Assembly (NCBI GenBank): GCA_964230645.1
Contig: CAXRHT010000001.1
Span: forward strand, 800,001 to 864,000
Length of the DNA: 64,000 nucleotides
DNA from: Bdellovibrionales bacterium
Lineage (GTDB): Bacteria; Bdellovibrionota; Bdellovibrionia; Bdellovibrionales; JAGQZY01
Direction of reading: 5' to 3'
Shown: in pieces, positions 3,276 to 21,382 of the stretch
Numbering within the stretch: position 1 is the first letter of the stretch
Layout of the letters: each line of letters starts with the position of its first letter
Translations under genes and position numbers: made by a program
The notes under the pieces: model-generated
The model's input: the letters and a program-made list of their open reading frames with translations, nothing else
The model's database searches: none
What the model was told of the DNA's origin: nothing

Positions 3276-4079
3276 TTACATCATGAGGCAAGCCATTTTC
3301 TCAAGACTTTGAGAAAGGGCTCGGCCCACGTCACTAAATGAGGATGCGGGCGTGAGATAGTTGGGATGAGTGACAACATGATCCCTGTAGAAGTCTCTTG
3401 TAATATAAAGATCTTCAGGCATATCGTTGGGGTCTCTTGGTTCAACCGTTTCACCGAGCATTTCCATGAGCTCATCCGCTCTACCTCTTCCTGTATCTTC
3501 ATATACGACAATGGGAAGACCATGAACTTGAATGCCTTCATAGCGAAAGAGATTTTTTAAGTTTAAAAATTCTTCGGCGGTATATTCATTGGGTGGACCG
3601 TCTCCTGAAATAAGGACCACTCTTCGAAAGGCTTGGTTGCCATCTCTTTTGAGGACTTCGAGTGACTTCTCAAGAGCTCCTCGCACATTGGTTACGTATC
3701 CGGTTCCATAAAGCTTAGCCAGTGGTGTTGGTGAGTTGATTTGGTTTCCAAAAAGAAGGGCTAAAGAAAAAAGGTCTTCCTCGGACCGAATACGCTTAGG
3801 TTCAAAAACAACGGACTGAGATTCACTCCAAAAAATCACACTTACTTCGGTACACCCACAACCTAAAAAAGGCCCCCAGAGATTCTCATTCATAAAGGCC
3901 TGCTGATAACCCTGCATCTGTAGGTTCATCTCCTGAGTATTAACCGAATGAGAAATATCTACAGCTATGACCACAGACTGATCAACTACGGACTGAGCGT
4001 CGCCACAGGCAGCCAAAGAGTATATTGAGATTAAGAAAATCTTTGAAAACACTAATATGATTCTGACAACTTGTAACAT
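3276..4079 (-). CDS. DUF1194-like VWA-fold secreted protein
   Basis: MIDAS-like AVDISHSV, QMQGYQQAF, VIFWS and RRVVLISGDGPPN motifs typical of DUF1194; N-terminal signal. Confidence 0.75.
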   Translation of the reverse strand: MLQVVRIILVFSKIFLISIYSLAACGDAQSVVDQSVVIAVDISHSVNTQEMNLQMQGYQQAFMNENLWGPFLGCGCTEVSVIFWSESQSVVFEPKRIRSEEDLFSLALLFGNQINSPTPLAKLYGTGYVTNVRGALEKSLEVLKRDGNQAFRRVVLISGDGPPNEYTAEEFLNLKNLFRYEGIQVHGLPIVVYEDTGRGRADELMEMLGETVEPRDPNDMPEDLYITRDFYRDHVVTHPNYLTPASSFSDVGRALSQSLEKMACLMM

Positions 4080-4238
4080 CGTGTGCTTCTAACATCGATT
4101 TTAACTGCTCCGAAGAAATCACTGCAAATTGTAACTTTTCCATACATTCTGGGTTGGACAACAAAAATTATAATATTTGTTTATATGATTGACCAGGATC
4201 AACCAATAGCTTAGGGTCGCAAAATCAAGAGGTGACCT

Positions 4239-4577
4239 ATGTCCAAAAAATTATTTTTTCTTGTTTCTTTTATTTCTAGCTGTTTCGCTAGTGCAAGAGC
4301 TTCAGTTGACGTTACCGGTAGTGATTTCATGGAAAATGGAAATTCTAGACATGAATTCGTCGGGCAAGAAGAAATGCTTTTACATTTCTCAAATAGTGAT
4401 AAAATAGACCAATTCTTCAAGGATAACTCTTGTGCTTATGGAGTGGGAAATGAAATACAAAGTGAAGACGACGTTGTGGTTGATCTCACTAATTGTGACG
4501 TTATTATCGTTCCTCCTGATGTGGAAATTCTTGCCGCAGGAAATGTTTGGGAAGAAGGAGGTCGAAACTTCCTTTAA
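4239..4577 (+). CDS. Small secreted acidic protein; candidate peptide/RiPP precursor
   Basis: GAGGTG RBS at 4229-4234; Sec signal ending ASARA; acidic mature part with 2 Cys; C-terminus ILAAGNVWEEGGRNFL; first gene of the SBP-YcaO-kinase cassette. Confidence 0.65.
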   Translation: MSKKLFFLVSFISSCFASARASVDVTGSDFMENGNSRHEFVGQEEMLLHFSNSDKIDQFFKDNSCAYGVGNEIQSEDDVVVDLTNCDVIIVPPDVEILAAGNVWEEGGRNFL

Positions 4578-6018
4578 GGAAGTCGACCTGACCTTTTTTC
4601 TTCACCAGAAAAATCCATTTTCTACTAGTATTTATAAAAGTGATTATTTCAGAAACAACGCCCTGATGGTTAATCTGATCGGTTCACTTGTAAAAACTGA
4701 CAACGCAGGAAAATACAACCTGTATCTTGCAAAAAAATTGCAAACTACACTTGATAAGAAAACTTGGATCTTTACCCTCAGAGACAATCTATCTTGTGAA
4801 AATGGTGAAAAGATCACCGCAGCCTCCTACGCGAAAAACCTCACTCAGTCCTTGAAACGGTACAGCCGGATGGGGCAACTGCTTGAATTTAAGAAGCTCT
4901 CTGGAGCTAACGAGCTCGATAAATGGGATACCACACAAATTCCTGGAATAACCTACGAAGCAAACAACCTAATCTTGAAATTTGACCAAAGGCCAGAACA
5001 ATTGTTTGAGCGCTTGGCTGATAGATATTTCGGATACATTTGTTCAGGGAATTTTGAGGAGGATAATTACACTTGGAAAGACGAAAGTAAAATTATTTCA
5101 AGTGGTCCTTATAGAATCCATGAAGTAACGTCAGAATGGGACTTTACCTTAATTTATAGAAAAAAAGGGTCGGTTCCAAGGGAAACAGAGTTCAAAAAAG
5201 TAAGGTATAAAATTGTGAGTGATCCAAATGACATTCACAGCTCAACTTTTGTTGCTCAGCTCAACGAAATAATTCCCAAGAAGAAAAATGTTAATCTTGT
5301 CGGGGGAGTTCCAACATTTACAGTCAATCTGTCACTTCCGATCTGGGAAAAGTCTATCTTTCAAAATATTAAATCACGAAAATATTTTTTCTTTGAGCTC
5401 TACAATATAAAACAGAAAACACGATACAATGACACTTCAACTGTTTCTGCAAACAGTTTCTTCCCCCTTGACCAAAGAGACTATTTTTCCGAATACTACA
5501 AAAATAATAAAGTAAGACCTTGGATGTTTGAACAGAAAAGAACGGCTGTGGTTTCTTTGTCTACCGGTTTACCTCAAGATTATCAGAAATTGATTATCGA
5601 TAATTTAAAAACTATCGGACAAAAAATGAATTTCGAAATAGAACTTTACGATCCCCGAAAACACCAAGCTAAGACTCCAGAAAACATTAAGCCCTTTGAT
5701 ATCCGAATCACCTCAGTTGATATGGATGCCATTCCTTATTTTTCTCTTCTAGACATGATATTCTGTTCGGAATTGGGAGTGAGATATTCGGACAACGGAG
5801 GTAGAGTTTGCAAGTTCATAAACCAGCATATTAACACTCATAACGGACCTTTAGATACAGCTCAACGAGAGCAGTTACATAAACTCATTCTTGATAATGG
5901 ATTGGTCATGCCCTTGGCGCACAGGTCTCTAACATATATGTACTCAGACAACATCGATCTCAGTACTGTTTCAGCTTCTGGCCTTCACCCAGTGCCGAAT
6001 TTACTGAAGAAAAAATGA
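4450..6018 (+). CDS. Family-5 (OppA/DppA-like) extracellular solute-binding protein with N-terminal membrane anchor
   Basis: LVKTD..G...LA, KTWIFTLRDNL..ENGEKITA and SSGPYRI motifs of SBP_bac_5. Preferred start is ATG 4450 with GGAG at 4440-4443, giving MKYKVKTTLWLISLIVTLLSFLLMW (the ORF track starts at 4432). Confidence 0.8.
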   Translation: MKYKVKTTLWLISLIVTLLSFLLMWKFLPQEMFGKKEVETSFKEVDLTFFLHQKNPFSTSIYKSDYFRNNALMVNLIGSLVKTDNAGKYNLYLAKKLQTTLDKKTWIFTLRDNLSCENGEKITAASYAKNLTQSLKRYSRMGQLLEFKKLSGANELDKWDTTQIPGITYEANNLILKFDQRPEQLFERLADRYFGYICSGNFEEDNYTWKDESKIISSGPYRIHEVTSEWDFTLIYRKKGSVPRETEFKKVRYKIVSDPNDIHSSTFVAQLNEIIPKKKNVNLVGGVPTFTVNLSLPIWEKSIFQNIKSRKYFFFELYNIKQKTRYNDTSTVSANSFFPLDQRDYFSEYYKNNKVRPWMFEQKRTAVVSLSTGLPQDYQKLIIDNLKTIGQKMNFEIELYDPRKHQAKTPENIKPFDIRITSVDMDAIPYFSLLDMIFCSELGVRYSDNGGRVCKFINQHINTHNGPLDTAQREQLHKLILDNGLVMPLAHRSLTYMYSDNIDLSTVSASGLHPVPNLLKKK

Positions 6019-6860
6019 GAAAGTTAAGTATTTTCGAAAAGGCGCCTGAGAAACCTATTGTATATATGCAGAAACAGCAAGGCTTTGAAGATAATCAATC
6101 ATTTTATCATGTTACCCTACATTTTCCATCTACAAACATACTAGCCTCTGGAAGCGACCGAAGCAAGAGGATCGCTACCAACAAAGCTTGCTGTGAAGCT
6201 GTTGAAAGATTATTTTACCATAGGCACCAAGGCACAGATGTCATGAAATTCCGAGAACTTAATTCAACCACATGTATGGCTGCAGGTTTTGATTTAAGAA
6301 AAACTATTCAACGTTCGAACAACGAATGTGTAGAAAGGTATATTAAGTTACTTATTAATCAAAAAAAGTTCACACCAAAAAAGTCTCAAATTGCTAAATC
6401 AGATTATCGTTACCTTGCAGGATGTTTCGATCGTATAGAGAGGTTTACCGTGCAAGTTTCGTTTTTAGACTATAATGGTATTTCACAGGTTCGCTGGTTT
6501 ACGCTTTGTCTTTGTTGGCAAAAAGGTCGCTTTGTAACAGGTTCTTCTGTGAATAATTCTGCTGAAATGGCTACGGAACACTCTCTTGTCGAAGCTAAAA
6601 GAAACTTAACTATACTAAACAAACTGGATTCGCCACCCTATAATCAGTTTAAAAATTCGTTTTATTCAAAAGTAAAAAAAATGTCGAAATCAGGAGTAAA
6701 AGCCCTAAACTACTTGGAGAATATTAACATCGAAAAAGACCAAGTCATGCTTCCAAAAATCTACTGGCAGGAGTACTCTAATTTTCTCGGCACACACGTC
6801 TGTCGATCTTTTCTACAAGGGTACCTCTTAGACCTACCAAACCAGAAGGATCTTTTTTGA
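6015..6860 (+). CDS. Compact YcaO-like family protein
   Basis: YcaO-type motifs in order: SGSD...A..KACCEAVER, NSTTCMAAG......RSNNECVER, GSS.....A...SLVEA; ATGA-coupled to the upstream gene. Confidence 0.7.
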   Translation: MRKLSIFEKAPEKPIVYMQKQQGFEDNQSFYHVTLHFPSTNILASGSDRSKRIATNKACCEAVERLFYHRHQGTDVMKFRELNSTTCMAAGFDLRKTIQRSNNECVERYIKLLINQKKFTPKKSQIAKSDYRYLAGCFDRIERFTVQVSFLDYNGISQVRWFTLCLCWQKGRFVTGSSVNNSAEMATEHSLVEAKRNLTILNKLDSPPYNQFKNSFYSKVKKMSKSGVKALNYLENINIEKDQVMLPKIYWQEYSNFLGTHVCRSFLQGYLLDLPNQKDLF

Positions 6861-8020
6861 AGCCCAAAAAATCAGTTTTCCAGGAAAAACGCTTATACAC
6901 TCTTCTATTTTTAACCACACTGGCAGGATTATCCCTGGTTCAAATTATTTTCTATATTTTGATGCTTTCAAACAGTACAGTAATTACGAAGACTCTAAGA
7001 GAAAGTTTTGATATTGGTCTCTACGAGTCTGATTTTGACAATGCTTCTATTCTTATGCGAAATCTCGAAAAAGCAGACATTTTAGATTGTGTTTCACTCA
7101 AGATTAAGACAATCGATCAGCTTTTCGTTGTCTACTCCTCTGCTGTCCAGGAAACTTGTAATCCCTCAAGCTTTTTACTCAATGGTGTCAGGGTTGAAGG
7201 TTCTCTTGCTGGCAACACTGGAAACTCATGGATTTATTCCTTTGTAGTTCGAATGGACCAGAATCACGTTCTATTGTTATGGTTTTGCCGTCTTCTGTCT
7301 TGCATTGTTTCATTCGCTTTAACTTATTTTTTTGTTCAGAACAATCTGCATATTAAACAAAAGGAAGATGAAATTTCACTAAACATGAGAGCTATAGCTC
7401 ACGACCTAACATCGCCTATTGGACTCCTTAGAATGCTTTCTAGTCAGCAAAAGTCATTGAATAATGACAAAACCCTTGGCTACATGAAAAATGCTACCGA
7501 AAGGCTTTCAGATATCTCACAAACTATTCTAGATGGAACCCTTGATATTTACTCTTCTTCTAGAGAAACTTTTAATATCAAGAAAATAACTGAAAAGATC
7601 GTTGAAGAGAAGATTAACTTCTTTGGTGATTCGATCAGTGTTGATATCGAAACCTCCGTTGCAAACCACAACTTAAATGTTATCGGGAACAGTCAGAAAT
7701 TTGAAAGAATCTTATCAAATATGATTAACAATTCTTTTGAGGCTCTCTCAGAGAAAGTATCAGTGCTTCAGATGAAAATCGTTTTGAAGTCTGAAAATTC
7801 TAAAATAACTGTTCAAATATCTGATAATGGTTCGGGCATAAGTGATAGCCTTTTGAATCATTTAGGTGAAAAAGTCGTAAAATCAACAAAAAAAGGGGGG
7901 AGTGGCCTTGGGCTCTATCTCGCCAAAAAGGATATCGGCGAATGGGGAGGAGAGTTTAAAATTAAAACTACAAGTCCCACCGGCACAACCTTTGAAATCT
8001 CTCTTCCTAGAAGCGTTTAA
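6857..8020 (+). CDS. Membrane sensor histidine kinase (no adjacent response regulator)
   Basis: Two TM segments; H-box IAHDLTSP; N-box LSNMINNS; G1 DNGSG; G2 GSGLGL; TTGA-coupled start. Confidence 0.9.
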   Translation: MKPKKSVFQEKRLYTLLFLTTLAGLSLVQIIFYILMLSNSTVITKTLRESFDIGLYESDFDNASILMRNLEKADILDCVSLKIKTIDQLFVVYSSAVQETCNPSSFLLNGVRVEGSLAGNTGNSWIYSFVVRMDQNHVLLLWFCRLLSCIVSFALTYFFVQNNLHIKQKEDEISLNMRAIAHDLTSPIGLLRMLSSQQKSLNNDKTLGYMKNATERLSDISQTILDGTLDIYSSSRETFNIKKITEKIVEEKINFFGDSISVDIETSVANHNLNVIGNSQKFERILSNMINNSFEALSEKVSVLQMKIVLKSENSKITVQISDNGSGISDSLLNHLGEKVVKSTKKGGSGLGLYLAKKDIGEWGGEFKIKTTSPTGTTFEISLPRSV

Positions 8021-8043
8021 AGAACACATTTACATTTAGGTCG

Positions 8044-8958
8044 CTAGATTGACTTATTCTGTATCTGCTGCAAAAGCGCTCGATAGAAGACGTCGAACAC
8101 GCGGGCTTGATCCGGGGCGCAGTCTTTTTTGGAATAAAATTGCACGTTCATTGGGTATTGGAAATCCACTATAGGTACTGCCGACATTCTTCCCGTGCGC
8201 ACATGCTTTCTAATACTGTGTGCAGGTAGAAAGCCCCAGCCTAGACCTGATTCGATCACACGTTTTATGGTTCCAACATTTGTGGTTTCAAAAACGGGGG
8301 TCGGAGCTTTTTCCCCGTCCATATGTTTAGTCAGTGAGTTTTGAAAGCTAGGGAATTTTTCTGACAAACGCACCACAGGATTTTGGTTAATGTCTTTAAG
8401 CTGAATCTCCGTTGGAACACTAGCGTCTTTACTCGTTCCAACAAGCCACATCTCATCTTTCATCAAAAGTTTTTTGTCGGCATTCTCCAAGGGAACCTGG
8501 TACTCAGCCTGAGCATCGGGAATGATGATCACATCCAATTGATTGTTTTTAAATTGTTCAATCAATGTAACACCATCTTCGTAATTCAACTTAATATTAA
8601 GTTTGGAATTGTGCTTTAAAAATAATCCCACCACCGGACTTATAATATAAAGTCCTAATGAGTTTAGGGTTCCAATTCTTAGGGTCCCTTGAATGGCTTC
8701 ACCGATGGTTTGAATGGCCACCTGCGCTTGCTGATTAAGAGCAATAATCCTTTTCGCATAGTCGTACAGAATTTGGCCTTGAGCTGTCGCTTTGGCCTGC
8801 CTTGAACCTCTGACCAAGAGCTCAACGTTGAGTTCTTCTTCTAAATTTCTGATCTGTTGGCTGACGGCGGGCTGAGTTAAGAATAGTTTTTCAGCAGCGG
8901 CCGTCATGCTGCCCTCACTAAGAACGGTACAAAAAGTGGTCAATTGTTGAAAATTCAT
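8044..8958 (-). CDS. LysR-family transcriptional regulator
   Basis: HTH SMTAAAEKLFLTQPAVSQQIRNLEEEL plus substrate-binding domain. Confidence 0.95.
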   Translation of the reverse strand: MNFQQLTTFCTVLSEGSMTAAAEKLFLTQPAVSQQIRNLEEELNVELLVRGSRQAKATAQGQILYDYAKRIIALNQQAQVAIQTIGEAIQGTLRIGTLNSLGLYIISPVVGLFLKHNSKLNIKLNYEDGVTLIEQFKNNQLDVIIIPDAQAEYQVPLENADKKLLMKDEMWLVGTSKDASVPTEIQLKDINQNPVVRLSEKFPSFQNSLTKHMDGEKAPTPVFETTNVGTIKRVIESGLGWGFLPAHSIRKHVRTGRMSAVPIVDFQYPMNVQFYSKKDCAPDQARVFDVFYRALLQQIQNKSI

Positions 8959-14344: not shown

Positions 14345-17300
14345 TCACTGAAAACCTTTAATCCAGGAAACATACACATCAGAGCCTATACGTTGAAAAG
14401 TATAGACTGTGCGAGTACCACTTTCTCTTGGGCCGTTCGCCGGCGAGAAAAAGAATGTTAAGCCCGTTTGCGAGAAATCACATTGGCTCGTACCGGTTTC
14501 TGAGACAGCCAGAATATAGGTACCACCATCAAGCATATTGCTAAAAGTTGTGGTGTCACAGTCTACATTCATAGTCTGAGCATTACCATTATCCCAATCC
14601 ACTGTAGCTGTTGTATTGACCTCAGAGGATCCGCTGGAATTGACACTACGAACTTGTCCTGCGACATCGAGTTTACCCACAGGGCTTGTTGTTCCTATTC
14701 CCACTTCACCAGTTGAATTTATAGAGAATGGAATTTGAGGCGCTCCATTATCGTAATTCACAATCGAGACCGCACTATCAATTGAGCCAGCCGTGGCATC
14801 AGTCATTACGAACCTAAAATTTCCTAAAGATTCAACAACCCCTTCTGTGGCTGTTTCGGCTGCAAATTGAAGTTGGTTGCCTGATCCATTGGCTCCCACA
14901 CCACTTGGATTTGTAGTACGAAGTTGTAGGACATTGCTTCCAGCACCGGCTCTTTCGGCAATTACTGCGACCTCTCCATCGGCGTAGACATGTAATTTTT
15001 TATCCGGCGCTGAAGTTCCTATTCCTAAGCGCCCTTGATTATCAAGCCGCATTTGTTCTTCGACCGCAGAATCGTTGGTATACCAACTAAAGTAACCATC
15101 ACCACCCGAGTGGTAAAATTGAAATTCGTTATCTTCACTAGCATTAAGATAACCTAGTTTGACCGTTTCGTTACCATCAGAGCCACGACTGAAATAAGCG
15201 ATTCCCGCATCGCCTCCTGCCGAATCACCAATAGTTAGTTTACCATGAACATCTAAGGCTTCTCTCGGTGCTGTTGTACCAATTCCGACCCGTCCTGAAG
15301 AATCAATTTGTAAGCGTCCTACACCACCTGTCGCTAAGCCCACTGTATCTGCCGCTGACATATAAAGCCCGGTGTCGGTATCAGTTCTGATCGTATATAG
15401 AGGAGTAGAAGCGGAGCTACTACCGTTATATCTTAGATAGGCTCCAGTAACATTTGCTGAATAAAAATCACTTGAGGAAAAGACCCAACGCTGAGTTCCA
15501 TTTGAAGAGTATCGAATAACTCCATCAGCTGAATTGAAAAAACCCGTATCCTCATCTCCATCAAATGTAAGACCTGGAGCACCTGCAGAACCACCTACAG
15601 CCTGTAGAGCTCCTGTCATTGGCACAGATCCATCAGCAAGAAAATCGCCACCACTAGCCCAACCTGTTGATATATCCTTACAGTTAGCGCCAGTTTCATC
15701 GCACAATTGTTGAGCTCTTATATTGCCTGCGACATCAAGTATATCACCGGGGGAAGTGGTACCAATTCCAACATTTCCGGAACCATCAATGACCATTCGT
15801 TGAGTGTTATCATTCCAGAAGGCGATCTCACCGGTACCACTGGCCTCAATATACATTTGACCTGTTTGACTAGGGGCAGAGGCATTTCCATACCCCACCC
15901 AACCGGCATGAGCATTATTGCTCGCCATAAAGTCTATACTAGACCAACCAAAGTTATTGGTGGATTGAATGGTCATAAGATCTGTAGAGTTTGATGTCAC
16001 AATTTCAAAGGCAGACCCTGGAGCACTGGTTCCAATTCCAACATTACCTGAGGTGTAGGAAATATCACCGGCATTATCTGTCCAAAGACTTCCACCTGAA
16101 ATACCATCGGACAGATCAATACAGTTACTATTGTCTTCATCACAAATCTCAGCAGCGTTGATTCTACCTGTGTGAACGTCAAGTTCAACAACGGGGGCAC
16201 TTGTACCAATTCCAACTGCTCCACTGCCACCTCTTATTCTAAAGTATTCTGTGAGAGCTCCTCCCGTACCATCGGCACCACCAGAGATCGTAAAATCACC
16301 ACCTCCACTGGCCGCTAGTTCCACGTCAAAGTTTGCTCCACTTCTGTCAAATCTAAACGTAGGATTGACATCGGATATTGTTAACAGTTGATCAGGATTC
16401 GTTGTGCCTATTCCCACATTACCATTGCTTGTGACCCGCATTCGTTCAGTGTTGTTTGTTGTGAAGCGGACATCTGCTGTGTTGTTCGTTCTAAGTTCAA
16501 CATAGTCATTTGCGGAGAACAGGGTCGCACCGCCAACACCAGAAGAGTTCCCCATACGCAGATAGTTTCCAGAATTTGATCCGTAGAGGAAATCATACAA
16601 GTAGGCGTTACCTTCAAAGTTAATGTTCTGAGTCGAATCAATGTTTATGGCCGTCGTGTTATTAGTTTCAAGATTCAAATCTTGAGCATCGTTGGTTCCC
16701 ACTGTTACCGGAGCACTCAGGGAGTTCCCTCCATTGAGAATATCTCCTCCACCACCGCTGCCACCAGCCTCTACCCAACTTGAGCCGTCGTAATATTTTA
16801 ATTTATTAAAATCAGCACTATCAATAGCTAGATCACCAGCAGCCCCAGTTCCAGGGAGAGCTGCAGGCGTAATTCTCATAGCACCGTCGACGTGAAGCAG
16901 TCGCTCCGGTGCTGTAGTACCAATCCCTAAATACCCAGAGCTCGCTATACGCATTTTCTCACTGGTCGATCCTGCTGATCTTGTAACAAATCTCATGGCG
17001 GTATTGGATGCAGAGCCTTCATTGGCGACGGCAATTTGACCCATTGTATTTCCACTGTATTCAAATTGTAGGAAACGAAAAGAGGACCCTCCTCCACTGG
17101 TATTGTCTATCGTAATTCCATAACCGCCACCGCTCTGCCCTCTAAATTCAGCATTATTTGAGTTGCTGAAATTAAGTCCGTAAGTGGTACTACCTGTTCC
17201 ATTTATATATTGATTCGCTAAATTTATATCACCAGTCATTTGGCCACCGGCTAGAGGTAAAAAGTCTGTACCTCCACTAGCCTCAATCCAGGTCGAACCA

Positions 17301-20300
17301 TCATAAAATTTTAATTTATTAGAATCCGAAGTATCCACAGCTAAAACTCCGGCATCAGGAGTTCCTGGTAAAGTGGAGGGTTGAATTCGCATCGCACCAG
17401 CGACTTCTAGCCGTTGAGTTGGTGTGGTCGTTCCAATACCAATATTCCCTGTTTCATCCATGAGAAGCCTTACTTCCCCCGCCGTTCCATCAAAAAGAGT
17501 AAATTTACCGGCTCCGACCGAATTTCCAGAGCCCGAGGAGAAGAGCTCGTAGTCTCTTCCCCCTGTGTCTGTGGAGAGTAAATGCAGGCCAACACCATTA
17601 GCTCCATAACTTTCTAAAAATGCATCAGTACCATTACCTGAAAGATGAAACTCGCCAGAGGGAACTGTCGTACCTATTCCAACATTTCCATTATTCAGGA
17701 TGGTCATTGCAGTCGAGTTGTTGGTTTCAAAGTTTAAGGCAAAAGAATCATTGGTACCTATGGTGACCGCAGCAGCTTCTGTATTACCACCATCCATTAT
17801 ATAGCCGCTTGAAGACAGTAAAGAGTTGATCTCACTGGCTGAGCGCACGAAATTATCTCGAGTCATTTTTCTTAAGCCACCAGCTGAGGTGTCAAAAATC
17901 AATAATTCGTCCCCTGGCGCCACCGTGGATTCTGCTGTTTCATTAGTAATATCGACATTCACACCCGTACCATCGACGGTAATGGCATCACCACCAACAA
18001 CTTCAATATCGTCGGCATTAACGTTAATTCCATTTCCTGCTCCTACAGCAAGTGTGCGATCAGAGGTCAGATCACCTCCACCCGTCAGACCAGCCCCAGA
18101 GGCGATAGATCTTGTTGTTGATACCTTAGCAGCTTCAAGCTCGACAAGAGCGGCTTGTAAAGTTGTGGCCGTTAGAGGAGTGGTTCCGACCGGAATAGCT
18201 GTTGGATCAAAAGCACTCTCATCAATTGTTAATGTGACATTATCGGTATCTGATGAAACAGCGATCTTACCATTAGCAGAACCAATGGATTTAAACTCTA
18301 AATTGAGTCCGTTCTTCGCTTTAAAGACACCTTCACCTGTACCAACATTAGCACCATCATTGACCTCTCCACCGGCGGCTGTTCCGAAAGCTTCCCAACT
18401 TGCACCATCACAATAGGAAACACTTGAGCCACTATACTTTAGAGTACCAGCCTTTGTTCCATCACAAAGGGCAAGGTCATCACCAATCTGAACTCCTCCT
18501 GCAACCTGTAGCTGCGATGTTGGAGTGGTGGTACCGATACCGACACTACCTGAGGTTCGGCCTACAGTAAGAGCCGTTCCAAAAGTGTCTGTCGCTAAAT
18601 TTAAATCACCTGAAATCGATGTCAGGGTTGTATCGGTCAGATTTAATTTGTCAGAGGCCGAGTCACTTTTACGGAAGTTTATTCCGCCTGGCCCGCCTCC
18701 AATAATCTCTCCACTTTGTACACGAACATCCCCATCGACATCTAATTTAAAAAGTGGACTAGAACTTCCGATTCCAACATTTCCTCCAAAAGCCGCCAGG
18801 TAACTGTCACTTTTACCTAAAAGGTGATTCACGTCATTAGAGCCATTGGCCCTATAGATCATAAAATTGGCACTACCTGAAGTATTCGAGTCTCGAAATA
18901 TACCCACATTGTGTAATGAACCTCCACCGCCTGTTGGACTTATATTTATTGTTGCGGTGGTGCCAGTTGAATTAGAAATAGTTGAGACGGTACTATCATG
19001 GCTAATTCTAAATCTTCGATTAAGATCTGTATCAGTTAAAGTAAAAACCGGAAAAGCAGATGCTATATCTAGTAAGCTTGAGGGAGCTGTAGTTCCGACC
19101 CCGACATTCCCATTGTCATCTACAATAAAGCTGGTTGTTCCGTTGTCTTGGACTTGGAAATTATTAGTACCTGTCAGATTCCAAACAACATCTGTAGAAT
19201 CAACCGTGACACTTGAACCATTGTCGTAAGCGTCATCTAAACTTTGAGTTTCTGCGGTTAAATATCCAGCCGCCGAGTGGTCTCCCCAACTAAAGGCGGT
19301 ATCCCAATCGGTGGAATTGTTGGTCACAGTCGTATAGGTATTCGCACCCGTTCTAACTAAAAGACCGTTTGTTGAAAACACATTATCGAGCTCTGTGCCT
19401 GTGATATTTTGTAAAAACCCTTCATTGGAGGCGAAGGTACCGACTTCACTTTGACTCAGTACAAAATTTGACCTTGTGATTTCTTTTAAATTTCCAGCGT
19501 CTTCACTGTCTCTTATTAAAAGACTATCGGCAGCAACGGCAGAAGTTAATTTGTCAGCCGTTCCGGCGACATCAACATTAACACCTGTGCCATCAACACT
19601 GATTCCGGTTCCAGCTCTGACTTCAATGTCATCAGCATTCACTGTAATACCGTTGCCAGCTCCTATGTCAAAAGTACGATCGAAGCTTAAGTCACCACCA
19701 CCGGTTAGACCTTGTCCCGCTGTTACACTTCTTGATTCTGCTGCGACGCTGGTCCAAGAAAGGACTCCGGCGCCATTTGTTTGTAGCACTTGTCCTGCTC
19801 CTCCGTCATCATCCGGAAGAGTCCACACAAAGGAAGACACGGCATTCACAGTGTTCGGCGCTTGAAATCCAACATACTTTGTTCCCGTATCCTGGAATCT
19901 TAATTCTGTAGTCACCCCTCCATTGAGATCCATCACCAGGTTTCCTGTCATGGAGTCACCACTTTTAGCGAGCTTTTCAGTGCTTAATTCTTCAATCGCT
20001 CCCTGCACTTCTGTGGCTGTATCCACATCACCACCATAGGTGTTATCAAAAGTGATTAAGTCGGCATCATAGTCACCCGCTGTCGCAACGACATTTCCTG
20101 TCCGTCCAAAAACTTGGGTCACTCCCGCGTTAACATCTTGCCAGGAGAGCACTCCACTTCCATCGGTTTGTAAGTATTGTCCAGGGTCACCATCGTTATC
20201 CGGTAGAATTAAATTAACCGTTGTCGCAAGGGCTGCTGGTGAGTGTAATGAGACATAATCAGAACCGTTTCCAGTGGCCTCAGCTAACTGCAGTTCACTT

Positions 20301-21382
20301 TCGTTTTCTAAGTTAATATTACCAGCGGAATTAATCCCGTTGGTAACACCAATCCCACCCGAGACGGTAAGGTTGTTACCTATACTAGCATCTTGGCCCG
20401 CACTTAAATTATTGGTGGCAGAAATATTGTTGTTAGCTGAAATATCATTAGTATTTGAAATGTCTTGATTTCCCATGTTGATGGAACCAGTCATGGTTCC
20501 ACCTCCCAATGGGAGTTTATTCACATCGTTTATCACTTGCGAGTTCCACTGCGTGCCATCCCAGGTCAGGACTTCGCCATTCTGACCGGCACCAAGAGCA
20601 CCAAGATCCGCGGTATCGACCTGTTGTCCACCGATGTAGCTACGAGCATAGCCGACGTTCACAGCGTCGGAATCTGTAGCTGGGTTGGGATCCGCGAGAT
20701 TGACTATTTTTTGGTTGTTGTTGTCCACGTCTGCTGTTGGAGCGCCCGCTGTAAAACTCGTGCTTGTTCCATCAAGAAGAGCTTGTAGCTCTGTCCAATT
20801 GCTGTCGTTAAAAACAATCTCCATATTAGTTTGGCTAAGATTGAATCCAGGCCCGCTATTGACCTGAATAAAGTCACCGACTCCAAGGCCACTGATCGAA
20901 CTGGCATTGGTAGCGTAGGGAACGCTGACGATGTTGTGATCTTGAGCTAATGTCACAGGACCTGAGCCATCATTAAAAGTTATTCGTAACCGTCTTCCAT
21001 CATTGGGACTTGGAGCATAACTCCCACCCATGACACAAAGATCAGGGTTCACAGTGCCTGTGGAATTACTAAGCGCTGTCGCTAAGTTTGTCGTATCCTG
21101 ATATTGCGCCCCGGACTGCGTCCCTAAGCCTACTTCGATGGCAAAAATACCATTGGAGTTTGACATATTGAGGGTATGCTCCTCACGGTAGAGAATACAT
21201 TCCTCAGCCCCTGGTGAAATCAGCTCGATACGAAAATCAACATTAGAAGCCTCAAGCGCTTGTCCGTTGGGCTTTATAATCTGACCTTGATAAGTAAAGT
21301 TCTCTGGGCCAGAAAAGGCCAAAGAGGGAAGAAATAAGACAGAGCTTATTAGGAAAATAAAGATTCGGTCAGTAACGTGCAC
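14345..21382 (-). CDS. Large mosaic trimeric fibre adhesin (Bdellovibrio MAT / phage tail-fibre-like), 2345 aa
   Basis: Signal peptide; N-terminal YQGQIIKPNG..LE...CILYREE; about 13 GxVGIGTxxP repeats; GLTGGGDL and LPxxDG..GQxLQTxGxGVLSW fibre modules; no C-terminal S74 chaperone motif recognised. Confidence 0.85.
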   Translation of the reverse strand: MHVTDRIFIFLISSVLFLPSLAFSGPENFTYQGQIIKPNGQALEASNVDFRIELISPGAEECILYREEHTLNMSNSNGIFAIEVGLGTQSGAQYQDTTNLATALSNSTGTVNPDLCVMGGSYAPSPNDGRRLRITFNDGSGPVTLAQDHNIVSVPYATNASSISGLGVGDFIQVNSGPGFNLSQTNMEIVFNDSNWTELQALLDGTSTSFTAGAPTADVDNNNQKIVNLADPNPATDSDAVNVGYARSYIGGQQVDTADLGALGAGQNGEVLTWDGTQWNSQVINDVNKLPLGGGTMTGSINMGNQDISNTNDISANNNISATNNLSAGQDASIGNNLTVSGGIGVTNGINSAGNINLENESELQLAEATGNGSDYVSLHSPAALATTVNLILPDNDGDPGQYLQTDGSGVLSWQDVNAGVTQVFGRTGNVVATAGDYDADLITFDNTYGGDVDTATEVQGAIEELSTEKLAKSGDSMTGNLVMDLNGGVTTELRFQDTGTKYVGFQAPNTVNAVSSFVWTLPDDDGGAGQVLQTNGAGVLSWTSVAAESRSVTAGQGLTGGGDLSFDRTFDIGAGNGITVNADDIEVRAGTGISVDGTGVNVDVAGTADKLTSAVAADSLLIRDSEDAGNLKEITRSNFVLSQSEVGTFASNEGFLQNITGTELDNVFSTNGLLVRTGANTYTTVTNNSTDWDTAFSWGDHSAAGYLTAETQSLDDAYDNGSSVTVDSTDVVWNLTGTNNFQVQDNGTTSFIVDDNGNVGVGTTAPSSLLDIASAFPVFTLTDTDLNRRFRISHDSTVSTISNSTGTTATINISPTGGGGSLHNVGIFRDSNTSGSANFMIYRANGSNDVNHLLGKSDSYLAAFGGNVGIGSSSPLFKLDVDGDVRVQSGEIIGGGPGGINFRKSDSASDKLNLTDTTLTSISGDLNLATDTFGTALTVGRTSGSVGIGTTTPTSQLQVAGGVQIGDDLALCDGTKAGTLKYSGSSVSYCDGASWEAFGTAAGGEVNDGANVGTGEGVFKAKNGLNLEFKSIGSANGKIAVSSDTDNVTLTIDESAFDPTAIPVGTTPLTATTLQAALVELEAAKVSTTRSIASGAGLTGGGDLTSDRTLAVGAGNGINVNADDIEVVGGDAITVDGTGVNVDITNETAESTVAPGDELLIFDTSAGGLRKMTRDNFVRSASEINSLLSSSGYIMDGGNTEAAAVTIGTNDSFALNFETNNSTAMTILNNGNVGIGTTVPSGEFHLSGNGTDAFLESYGANGVGLHLLSTDTGGRDYELFSSGSGNSVGAGKFTLFDGTAGEVRLLMDETGNIGIGTTTPTQRLEVAGAMRIQPSTLPGTPDAGVLAVDTSDSNKLKFYDGSTWIEASGGTDFLPLAGGQMTGDINLANQYINGTGSTTYGLNFSNSNNAEFRGQSGGGYGITIDNTSGGGSSFRFLQFEYSGNTMGQIAVANEGSASNTAMRFVTRSAGSTSEKMRIASSGYLGIGTTAPERLLHVDGAMRITPAALPGTGAAGDLAIDSADFNKLKYYDGSSWVEAGGSGGGGDILNGGNSLSAPVTVGTNDAQDLNLETNNTTAINIDSTQNINFEGNAYLYDFLYGSNSGNYLRMGNSSGVGGATLFSANDYVELRTNNTADVRFTTNNTERMRVTSNGNVGIGTTNPDQLLTISDVNPTFRFDRSGANFDVELAASGGGDFTISGGADGTGGALTEYFRIRGGSGAVGIGTSAPVVELDVHTGRINAAEICDEDNSNCIDLSDGISGGSLWTDNAGDISYTSGNVGIGTSAPGSAFEIVTSNSTDLMTIQSTNNFGWSSIDFMASNNAHAGWVGYGNASAPSQTGQMYIEASGTGEIAFWNDNTQRMVIDGSGNVGIGTTSPGDILDVAGNIRAQQLCDETGANCKDISTGWASGGDFLADGSVPMTGALQAVGGSAGAPGLTFDGDEDTGFFNSADGVIRYSSNGTQRWVFSSSDFYSANVTGAYLRYNGSSSASTPLYTIRTDTDTGLYMSAADTVGLATGGVGRLQIDSSGRVGIGTTAPREALDVHGKLTIGDSAGGDAGIAYFSRGSDGNETVKLGYLNASEDNEFQFYHSGGDGYFSWYTNDSAVEEQMRLDNQGRLGIGTSAPDKKLHVYADGEVAVIAERAGAGSNVLQLRTTNPSGVGANGSGNQLQFAAETATEGVVESLGNFRFVMTDATAGSIDSAVSIVNYDNGAPQIPFSINSTGEVGIGTTSPVGKLDVAGQVRSVNSSGSSEVNTTATVDWDNGNAQTMNVDCDTTTFSNMLDGGTYILAVSETGTSQCDFSQTGLTFFFSPANGPRESGTRTVYTFQRIGSDVYVSWIKGFQ

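Follow-up and report, generated by a model that had tools for sequence, protein, structure and literature searches.

A four-gene cassette of Bdellovibrionota linking a minimal YcaO enzyme to a secreted-type protein, a solute-binding protein and a sensor kinase

We analysed a 64,000-nucleotide stretch of DNA from a Bdellovibrionales bacterium (the window; positions 800,001 to 864,000 of contig CAXRHT010000001.1, assembly GCA_964230645.1) and focused on a cassette of four genes on its forward strand at 4239-8020. These genes encode a small acidic secreted-type protein of 112 aa (4239..4577), a family-5 (OppA-like) solute-binding protein (SBP) of 522 aa (4450..6018), a stand-alone minimal YcaO enzyme of 281 aa (6015..6860) and a sensor histidine kinase of 387 aa with two transmembrane segments (6857..8020). 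The comparisons below suggest, with somewhat better than even confidence, that the four genes, which are inherited as one unit, produce a modified protein signal of their own and also detect it, and the Asn-type unit of YcaO, precursor, SBP and kinase is real, widespread and apparently undescribed. All four open reading frames (ORFs) had intact frames, and an earlier first-pass annotation of the window was right to describe them as co-directional and coupled, both junctions (ATGA at 6015 and TTGA at 6857) being verified.

Linkage and phylogeny of the cassette genes

A profile built from 33 short YcaOs matched 192 of 384 genomes of the order (371 matches), and a profile specific to the clade of the window cassette, hereafter the Asn clade, matched 37 of 301 genomes sampled across the phylum; one named carrier of this clade is Bdellovibrio sp. 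HCB337 (L216). The loci fetched comprised 28 from a first set and 80 of the 150 listed among the 371 matches, hand-picked for score and long contigs, and none of the other 221. Linkage was counted on the 89 rows with at least 2.5 kb on both sides, three long YcaOs with neither neighbour being set aside. An SBP gene was present in 89 of these 89 short-YcaO loci, a kinase gene in 88, a sigma-54-type regulator in 39 and a VirB4-like gene in 25, as detected with neighbour profiles that were seeded from the cassette loci themselves and with which Pfam agreed for the sampled members. The prediction of the first-pass annotation that the genes co-occur in other genomes was thus borne out for the SBP and the kinase, and the loci showed three gene orders.

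Traits were counted on 97 loci (28 of the Asn clade and 69 others), after six automatic small-ORF picks had been corrected by hand and 13 loci dropped (four long YcaOs, six contig-end cuts, the broken loci L100 and L108, and L090, in which no small ORF was found). In trees of 94 loci, the distances between YcaOs and between SBPs correlated at 0.805 (shuffle maximum 0.10), and 37 of the 43 supported YcaO splits recurred in the SBP tree. The 28 Asn-clade loci, including the window cassette, formed a single group in both the YcaO and the SBP tree (support 0.914 and 1.0). This agreement shows joint inheritance, not strict co-evolution. Genomes of the same genus held different cassette clades at different sites.

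A single conserved asparagine in the small protein

The small protein has signal-like residues 1-21, followed by Cys65, Cys86 and a core around Asn102 (codon 4542..4544, forward strand), and its C-terminal end reads ILAAGNVWEEGGRNFL. Its mature part, of about 91 aa and with an isoelectric point (pI) of 4.05, contains a conserved hairpin and the two Cys. The AlphaFold model reached a confidence score (pLDDT) of only 60, and the protein had no Atlas match and belonged to no Pfam or NCBIfam family. A signal-like N-terminus, judged like the SBP anchor by eye and with a hydrophobicity rule, was present in 81 of 97 small proteins versus 3 of 97 YcaOs.

Among the small proteins of the Asn clade, whose mean identity is 16%, Asn102 occupied the sole invariant column (28/28). 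An alignment artefact was considered as its cause, and the position was measured from the hairpin anchor with all Asn masked. A preset interval of +17 to +20 caught 14 of 28 loci; an interval of +18 to +22, chosen from that result and then applied to 13 held-out loci, contained an Asn in 28/28 and in 11/13, respectively (background means 7.4 and 3.7). The residues flanking the Asn varied freely, and Cys, Ser and Thr were all absent within three residues of it in 15 of 39 copies. In the window's own copy, the last 26 residues (after Cys86) contain no Cys, Ser or Thr at all. Because this core lacks such residues and the conserved one is Asn102, the azoline chemistry proposed in the first-pass annotation is a misfit here.

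The SBP gene most likely starts at ATG 4450, which is preceded by GGAG; alternative in-frame starts farther upstream could be used at 4432 and 4438. Its first 128 bases, which include the hydrophobic anchor, thus fall within the small ORF. This dual-coding stretch (4450..4577, forward strand), which the first-pass annotation did not mention, encodes the core of the small protein and, in the +1 frame, the N-terminal membrane anchor of the SBP. The overlap recurred in L050 and L058 and, in the same +1 frame, in 28 of 28 Asn-clade loci. A frameshift artefact was ruled out as its cause by this recurrence and by four DNA runs free of indels.

The overlapped codons 76-104 were 69% identical among the three closest copies, compared with 27% for residues 22-70. 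Changes in the overlap were distributed over the codon positions as 25/6/36 in the small-ORF frame, equivalent to 6/36/25 in the SBP frame, whereas the SBP body showed the opposite pattern (459/300/860; Fisher p 1.6e-7, a value that rests on non-independent pairs). Because the codon-position pattern of changes reverses that of the SBP body, the tail is under selection as part of the small protein; the small ORF, whose lack of conservation would have refuted the first-pass annotation, is under purifying selection. A by-product of the SBP frame was likewise ruled out as the source of the Asn by codon usage. The first base of its codon is a wobble position of the SBP with a synonymous alternative in 28/28 loci, yet it was A in 28/28, compared with 40% in the SBP body. 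The codon was AAT in 17 loci and AAC in 11, and the overlapping SBP residue varied among T, I and M. The constant A at a wobble site therefore shows that the Asn does not simply mirror the SBP frame.

The minimal YcaO enzyme

The 281-aa protein matched PF02624 at 29.1 bits against a cut-off of 25.7, and 32 of 46 Asn-clade YcaOs matched it at E <= 0.01. Since the match was barely above the cut-off, its identity was tested further. The AlphaFold model, built with 24 relatives, reached a pLDDT of 91.2, and in a Foldseek search YcaO structures ranked first, with Methanopyrus kandleri YcaO (M. kandleri) as the best match (E 6.6e-8). In the VIA comparison, the model aligned with McbD (6gos) at Z 20.9 and a root-mean-square deviation of 3.1 over 254 residues, the aligned ranges extending to both C-termini; the top 14 entries were all YcaOs, and the next fold scored Z 8.8. 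A profile alignment placed E61, E64, R65, E104, E107, R108 and E193 at E75, E78, R79, E199, E202, R203 and E290 of E. coli YcaO. These seven Glu/Arg positions, reportedly the Mg-ATP ligands (Dunbar 2014), were retained in 95-97 of 97 loci. Fold and ligands agree with the Pfam match, and the assignment of this protein as a YcaO in the first-pass annotation stands.

The enzyme has no signal peptide. His189 lies at the position of E. coli YcaO Arg286 and was present in 27 of 28 Asn-clade loci, and the YcaOs of this clade also carry Gly91 and, in 25 of 28, an RFxY tail. The azoline-type C-terminal PxP motif was absent, and 1 of the 28 clade YcaOs had a Pro among its last 6 residues. No TfuA gene was detected, as judged by the lack of a PF07812 match in the 99.6% complete genome, and E1-like, RRE-partner (RRE, recognition element of RiPPs, peptides that are made by ribosomes and modified after translation) and dehydrogenase genes were not found in the operon and its flanks. 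The window YcaO is basic (pI 9.47) and the mature small protein acidic (4.05), which is a weak hint because the clade median is 7.0. The first 70 residues of the YcaO model (window 6015-6230) resembled double-stranded-RNA-binding domains (Z 8-9, with a weak PF00035 match), probably a matter of shared fold only.

The binding protein and the kinase

The SBP matched PF00496 at 43.6 bits (cut-off 32.4) and has an N-terminal hydrophobic helix without a lipobox. In a comparison of its profile with the PDB, OppA proteins were closest; PrgZ was among the matches (E 2.3e-10) with a lower score, and NikA-type proteins were found as well. No permease gene adjoins it, as the first-pass annotation had noted, and 4 of 97 loci had an ABC ATPase motif no farther than 4 kb from the SBP.

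The kinase has a TTG start, a periplasmic domain of about 100 aa and the phospho-acceptor His182; it matched HATPase_c at 68.5 bits with its His and ATP boxes kept. The periplasmic domain is conserved in the clade and contains two invariant Cys (Cys78 and Cys101). In the Atlas comparison its features reached 0.85-0.88 against sCache/CHASE-like clusters, short of the 0.9 line, and no Pfam sensor family matched; a Cache-like sensor domain is a lead only. No sigma-54-type response regulator, the only regulator type profiled, was matched within 4.5 kb of the YcaO, in keeping with the earlier description of a kinase without a response regulator.

Core type and enzyme tail in other clades

Outside the Asn clade, 53 of 69 small proteins carried a Cys among their last 20 residues, versus 4 of 28 in the Asn clade, and 57 of 69 YcaOs had a Pro among their last 6 residues, versus 1 of 28. 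Most of the Cys-less exceptions outside the Asn clade had Ser or Thr motifs, and one clade showed a Cys/Ser swap in a PS[CS] core. In these counts, the core type of the small protein was shown to covary with the YcaO clade. A Pro-rich YcaO tail together with a Cys/Ser core is a signature of azoline formation (PMC12338566, PMC7136475). Because Pro-tailed YcaOs are paired with Cys/Ser cores elsewhere in the family, the small protein is the likely substrate across it.

Several other loci were noted in passing. L042 and L050, from the same genus, carry a Cys and an Asn cassette, respectively, at the same site in opposite orientation; this site adjoins lptC-lptB-rpoN-like genes (named by eye). A further clade (L175-L184, L163 and L168), mostly with a sigma-54 regulator, has YcaOs ending in R-x-C-L or similar and small proteins with a conserved [ST]-Q-[DE] near the C-terminus (AGQIW in one), and may be of an oxazoline or Gln-directed type. 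The same-genus loci L032, L035, L039 and L040 combine an HPLP/HILP-tailed YcaO with a Cys-free W-[ST]-E-L core, and are likely of a (methyl)oxazoline type. A VirB4/TraG-like ATPase was located within 6 kb of 26 of 69 non-Asn cassettes (for example L030, L033, L036 and L044) versus 0 of 28 Asn-clade cassettes, and the signal of such cassettes may control the transfer of conjugative elements. L108, L188, L100 and L149 look broken, with a split or truncated YcaO or a split small ORF, through decay or assembly error. An evenly spaced repeat-spacer array, CRISPR-like by eye, lies just upstream of the cassette in L038 (L038:9911-11913).

Proposed mechanism and alternatives

In the mechanism we propose, the cytoplasmic mini-YcaO would activate, at the expense of ATP, a backbone amide of the small protein at Asn102, and the modified protein would then be exported by Sec. 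The YcaO must act ahead of export, since it depends on ATP and lacks a signal peptide, and bufferins show that precursors with Sec signals can be treated in this manner (PMC12452194). The anchored SBP would bind the product, either the whole mature protein or a clipped tail, and report to the kinase, which would hand the signal to a regulator encoded elsewhere. We consider it quite likely that the YcaO is active and that the small protein is its substrate. Quorum or kin signalling, the use proposed in the first-pass annotation, would be a putative function of such a circuit.

The chemistry can be proposed less firmly. Because Asn is the only conserved residue, our first choice, a tentative one that also leans on the chemistry reported for the Spy pathway (see below), is that the Asn itself reacts: its side-chain amide would attack the Gly101 carbonyl ahead of it and form a six-membered ring, with loss of water (-18 Da). 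An amidine or thioamide next to the Asn is possible but doubtful, and ATP-dependent cleavage at the Asn is unlikely. In YcaO reactions, a nucleophile attacks a backbone carbonyl, followed by phosphorylation and elimination, and the family also cleaves peptides and builds nucleobase-like rings (PMC13063428). TfuA-dependent thioamide formation at Asn is known (PMC13174530), and ItfB forms an amidine from ammonia (PMC11002830). Thioamidation without TfuA also exists (PMC13063428), so the missing TfuA does not exclude a thioamide in this cassette.

Several observations weigh against this mechanism. The four genes encode no regulator, protease or outer-membrane exporter, so the circuit may stay within one cell; for the same reason the term 'self-contained' in the first-pass annotation was overstated, although the make-export-sense order it proposed fits the anatomy. 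A sigma-54-type regulator was nearby in 1 of 28 Asn-clade loci versus 40 of 69 others. PF00528 permease genes adjoin two of the nine family-5 SBPs of the genome and seven are unpaired, which makes the absent permease ordinary; the 'orphan' SBP of the first-pass annotation does lack an adjacent permease, but this is weak evidence. The kinase tree fitted less well than that of the SBP (correlation 0.47 with YcaO, 25 of 43 splits). His189 was rejected as a marker exclusive to the Asn clade, being present in 7 of 69 Cys-type loci. The window YcaO and two close relatives have Cys87 where 94 of 97 loci have Gly, and the window copy ends in NQKDLF, without the RFxY tail that 25 of 28 YcaOs of the clade share; because of these two departures, it is perhaps altered or weakened. 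Of the two held-out exceptions, L170 has His for Asn and L173 has an Asn near its end but aligned poorly, and no small ORF was found at L090. The switch to Asn took place about once on the tree, as one strongly conserved evolutionary event, so that the 28 Asn-clade loci are not independent events.

The alternative that survives best, though unlikely, is a cell-autonomous sensor in which the small protein serves an SBP-kinase complex as a periplasmic subunit or self-made plug and the YcaO mark sets its state, reporting ATP, export or periplasmic proteolysis within one cell. Sec export stops in the periplasm, and neither an outer-membrane exit nor a protease is encoded; the mature protein, with its length of about 91 aa, conserved hairpin and two Cys, is consistent with such a subunit, and the overlap seen in all 28 clade members would couple its synthesis to that of the SBP. 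However, the cores differ by clade, with several clades per genome or genus, which fits distinct signal channels, and 26 of the 69 non-Asn units lie beside a VirB4-like gene, a setting in which cell-to-cell signalling is common.

It is improbable that the SBP instead feeds the modified peptide into the chromosomal Opp permeases, in the manner of Enterococcus PrgZ and its pheromone, with the kinase sensing something else or acting solely as a regulator of the operon. In favour of this, two permease pairs adjoin other family-5 SBPs of the genome, seven of nine such SBPs have no permease next to them, and the SBP profile picked up PrgZ in the PDB, below the OppA proteins. Against this import route, a kinase adjoins in 88 of 89 loci, its periplasmic domain is conserved in the clade with two invariant Cys, and no recurring cytoplasmic receptor gene was seen in the loci inspected by eye.

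An antimicrobial or metal-binding RiPP with autoregulation, in which the SBP serves immunity or recovery and the kinase senses the product, is very improbable: each precursor has a single conserved site with freely varying flanks, dehydrogenase and exporter are not encoded, and an Asn core would be a poor metal ligand. It draws some credit from the NikA-type proteins among the SBP matches, from the frequent antibacterial activity of YcaO RiPPs (PMC7136475) and from the Sec-exported bufferins, which bind copper (PMC12452194). Least credible is that the mini-YcaO binds nucleotide as a non-catalytic partner or has a different target protein, for example the kinase, with Asn102 only a determinant of SBP binding, since all seven Glu/Arg ligands are retained and other clades match Pro-rich YcaO tails with Cys/Ser cores, the azoline signature, even though the enzyme is about 100 residues shorter than solved YcaOs, has no leader-binding partner and carries the Gly87Cys change in the window copy, and YcaOs can modify folded proteins such as uL16 (PMC13063428).

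Relation to known systems

The cassette YcaO shares its fold (Z 15-21), its Mg-ATP ligands and the lack of a fused partner with the known stand-alone YcaOs (McbD 6gos, M. kandleri, M. jannaschii, E. coli, MusD, bottromycin and ItfB). It differs from them in its size (281 aa versus 360-400 aa for the smallest solved ones), in having His for Arg286, no Pro-rich tail and no TfuA in the genome, and in its candidate substrate with a signal peptide and its linkage to an SBP and a kinase. In the Spy pathway of Pei et al. 2025, a YcaO reportedly cyclises one Asn to a pyrimidone ring, aided by a His, and is said to require an RRE-YcaO-dehydrogenase complex and a follower peptidase. The cassette small protein has a conserved core Asn as well, whereas RRE, dehydrogenase and follower peptidase are not in the cassette and it is the enzyme that carries the conserved His. 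In ComQXPA and agr of Firmicutes, a precursor, a modifying enzyme and a kinase are co-inherited and the cores diverge. The cassette differs from these in its unrelated enzyme and receptor domain, its intervening SBP, its diderm host and, in the Asn clade, the mostly absent regulator in the locus.

SBPs stand beside sensor kinases in CBP-ChiS, LuxP-LuxQ, TorT-TorS and AioX-AioS, as in 88 of 89 cassette loci, and SBP genes whose products stimulate kinases adjoin signalling genes (PMC8050422). In Vibrio cholerae, the CBP that stimulates ChiS belongs to family 5, like the cassette SBP (PMC8050422). The ligands of these four systems are sugars, autoinducer-2, trimethylamine N-oxide and arsenite, respectively, compared with a candidate modified protein from the same operon here, and the cassette SBP is apparently membrane-anchored, unlike theirs. 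Bufferins and oxazolins are RiPPs whose precursors, like the candidate one of the cassette, have Sec signal peptides, modification being needed before export; their MNIO enzymes act on Cys, the products bind copper, and the available part of the source mentions no histidine kinase (PMC12452194).

No published account of the YcaO-precursor-SBP-kinase gene set was found, in a literature coverage that takes in few subscription papers. The papers listed by full-text searches for YcaO in Bdellovibrio or Bdellovibrionota were unrelated, as judged by titles and the beginnings of abstracts; a search that combined YcaO with the other parts of the cassette gave a single paper, on phazolicin uptake, and YcaO with pyrimidone returned nothing. 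Among the entries listed by broader searches, no title concerned the gene set. The cassette probably works like a modified-peptide pheromone system and yet belongs to no described family.

A joint reading, which we offer tentatively, is that Bdellovibrionota use such cassettes as exchangeable signal channels for kin or density sensing, in which the 281-aa YcaO would mark an exported protein, and that the Asn clade has switched from Cys/Ser rings to an Asn ring or cleavage by means of the enzyme's His and without partners. Under this reading, recombination could not part signal and receptor, because the signal core occupies the same bases as the receptor anchor. The window YcaO would then be the smallest known working YcaO and would represent a partner-free route to Asn backbone chemistry, useful in peptide engineering, within a peptide-signal circuit of diderm predators, of a kind absent from the literature searches made. 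Short YcaOs of the cassette type occur in about half of the order's genomes, often in several copies with different cores.

Genomic setting of the cassette

The genome (3.78 Mb, 99.6% complete) contains one YcaO gene and nine family-5 SBPs, and no VirB4-like gene was found in it. The AT-rich block remarked on in the first-pass annotation is real, with a GC content of 0.369 versus 0.429 +/- 0.018, as low as in 2 of 997 equal-sized genome windows. Across 4100-8100, contigs of four public marine DNA runs, all from one study and two of them possibly the source of the assembly, showed zero indels or variant letters. Promoter and terminator scans of the cassette region gave results near chance, scans for Rfam families, tandem repeats and terminal repeats gave no match in the region, and a single-protein locus scan of genomes found nothing.

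The cassette forms the right end of a 12.6-kb lineage-specific stretch (contig 795430-808043, in the window up to 8043), which sits between a PDRP-like gene and a LysR gene that abut each other in 6 of 12 same-genus genomes. Also within this stretch are a DUF1194 vWA gene (3276-4079) and genes for secreted proteins that match no known family. Further along the window, a minus-strand ORF of 2345 aa (14345-21382) contains many GNVGIGT-like repeats and likely encodes a fibre- or adhesin-type protein.

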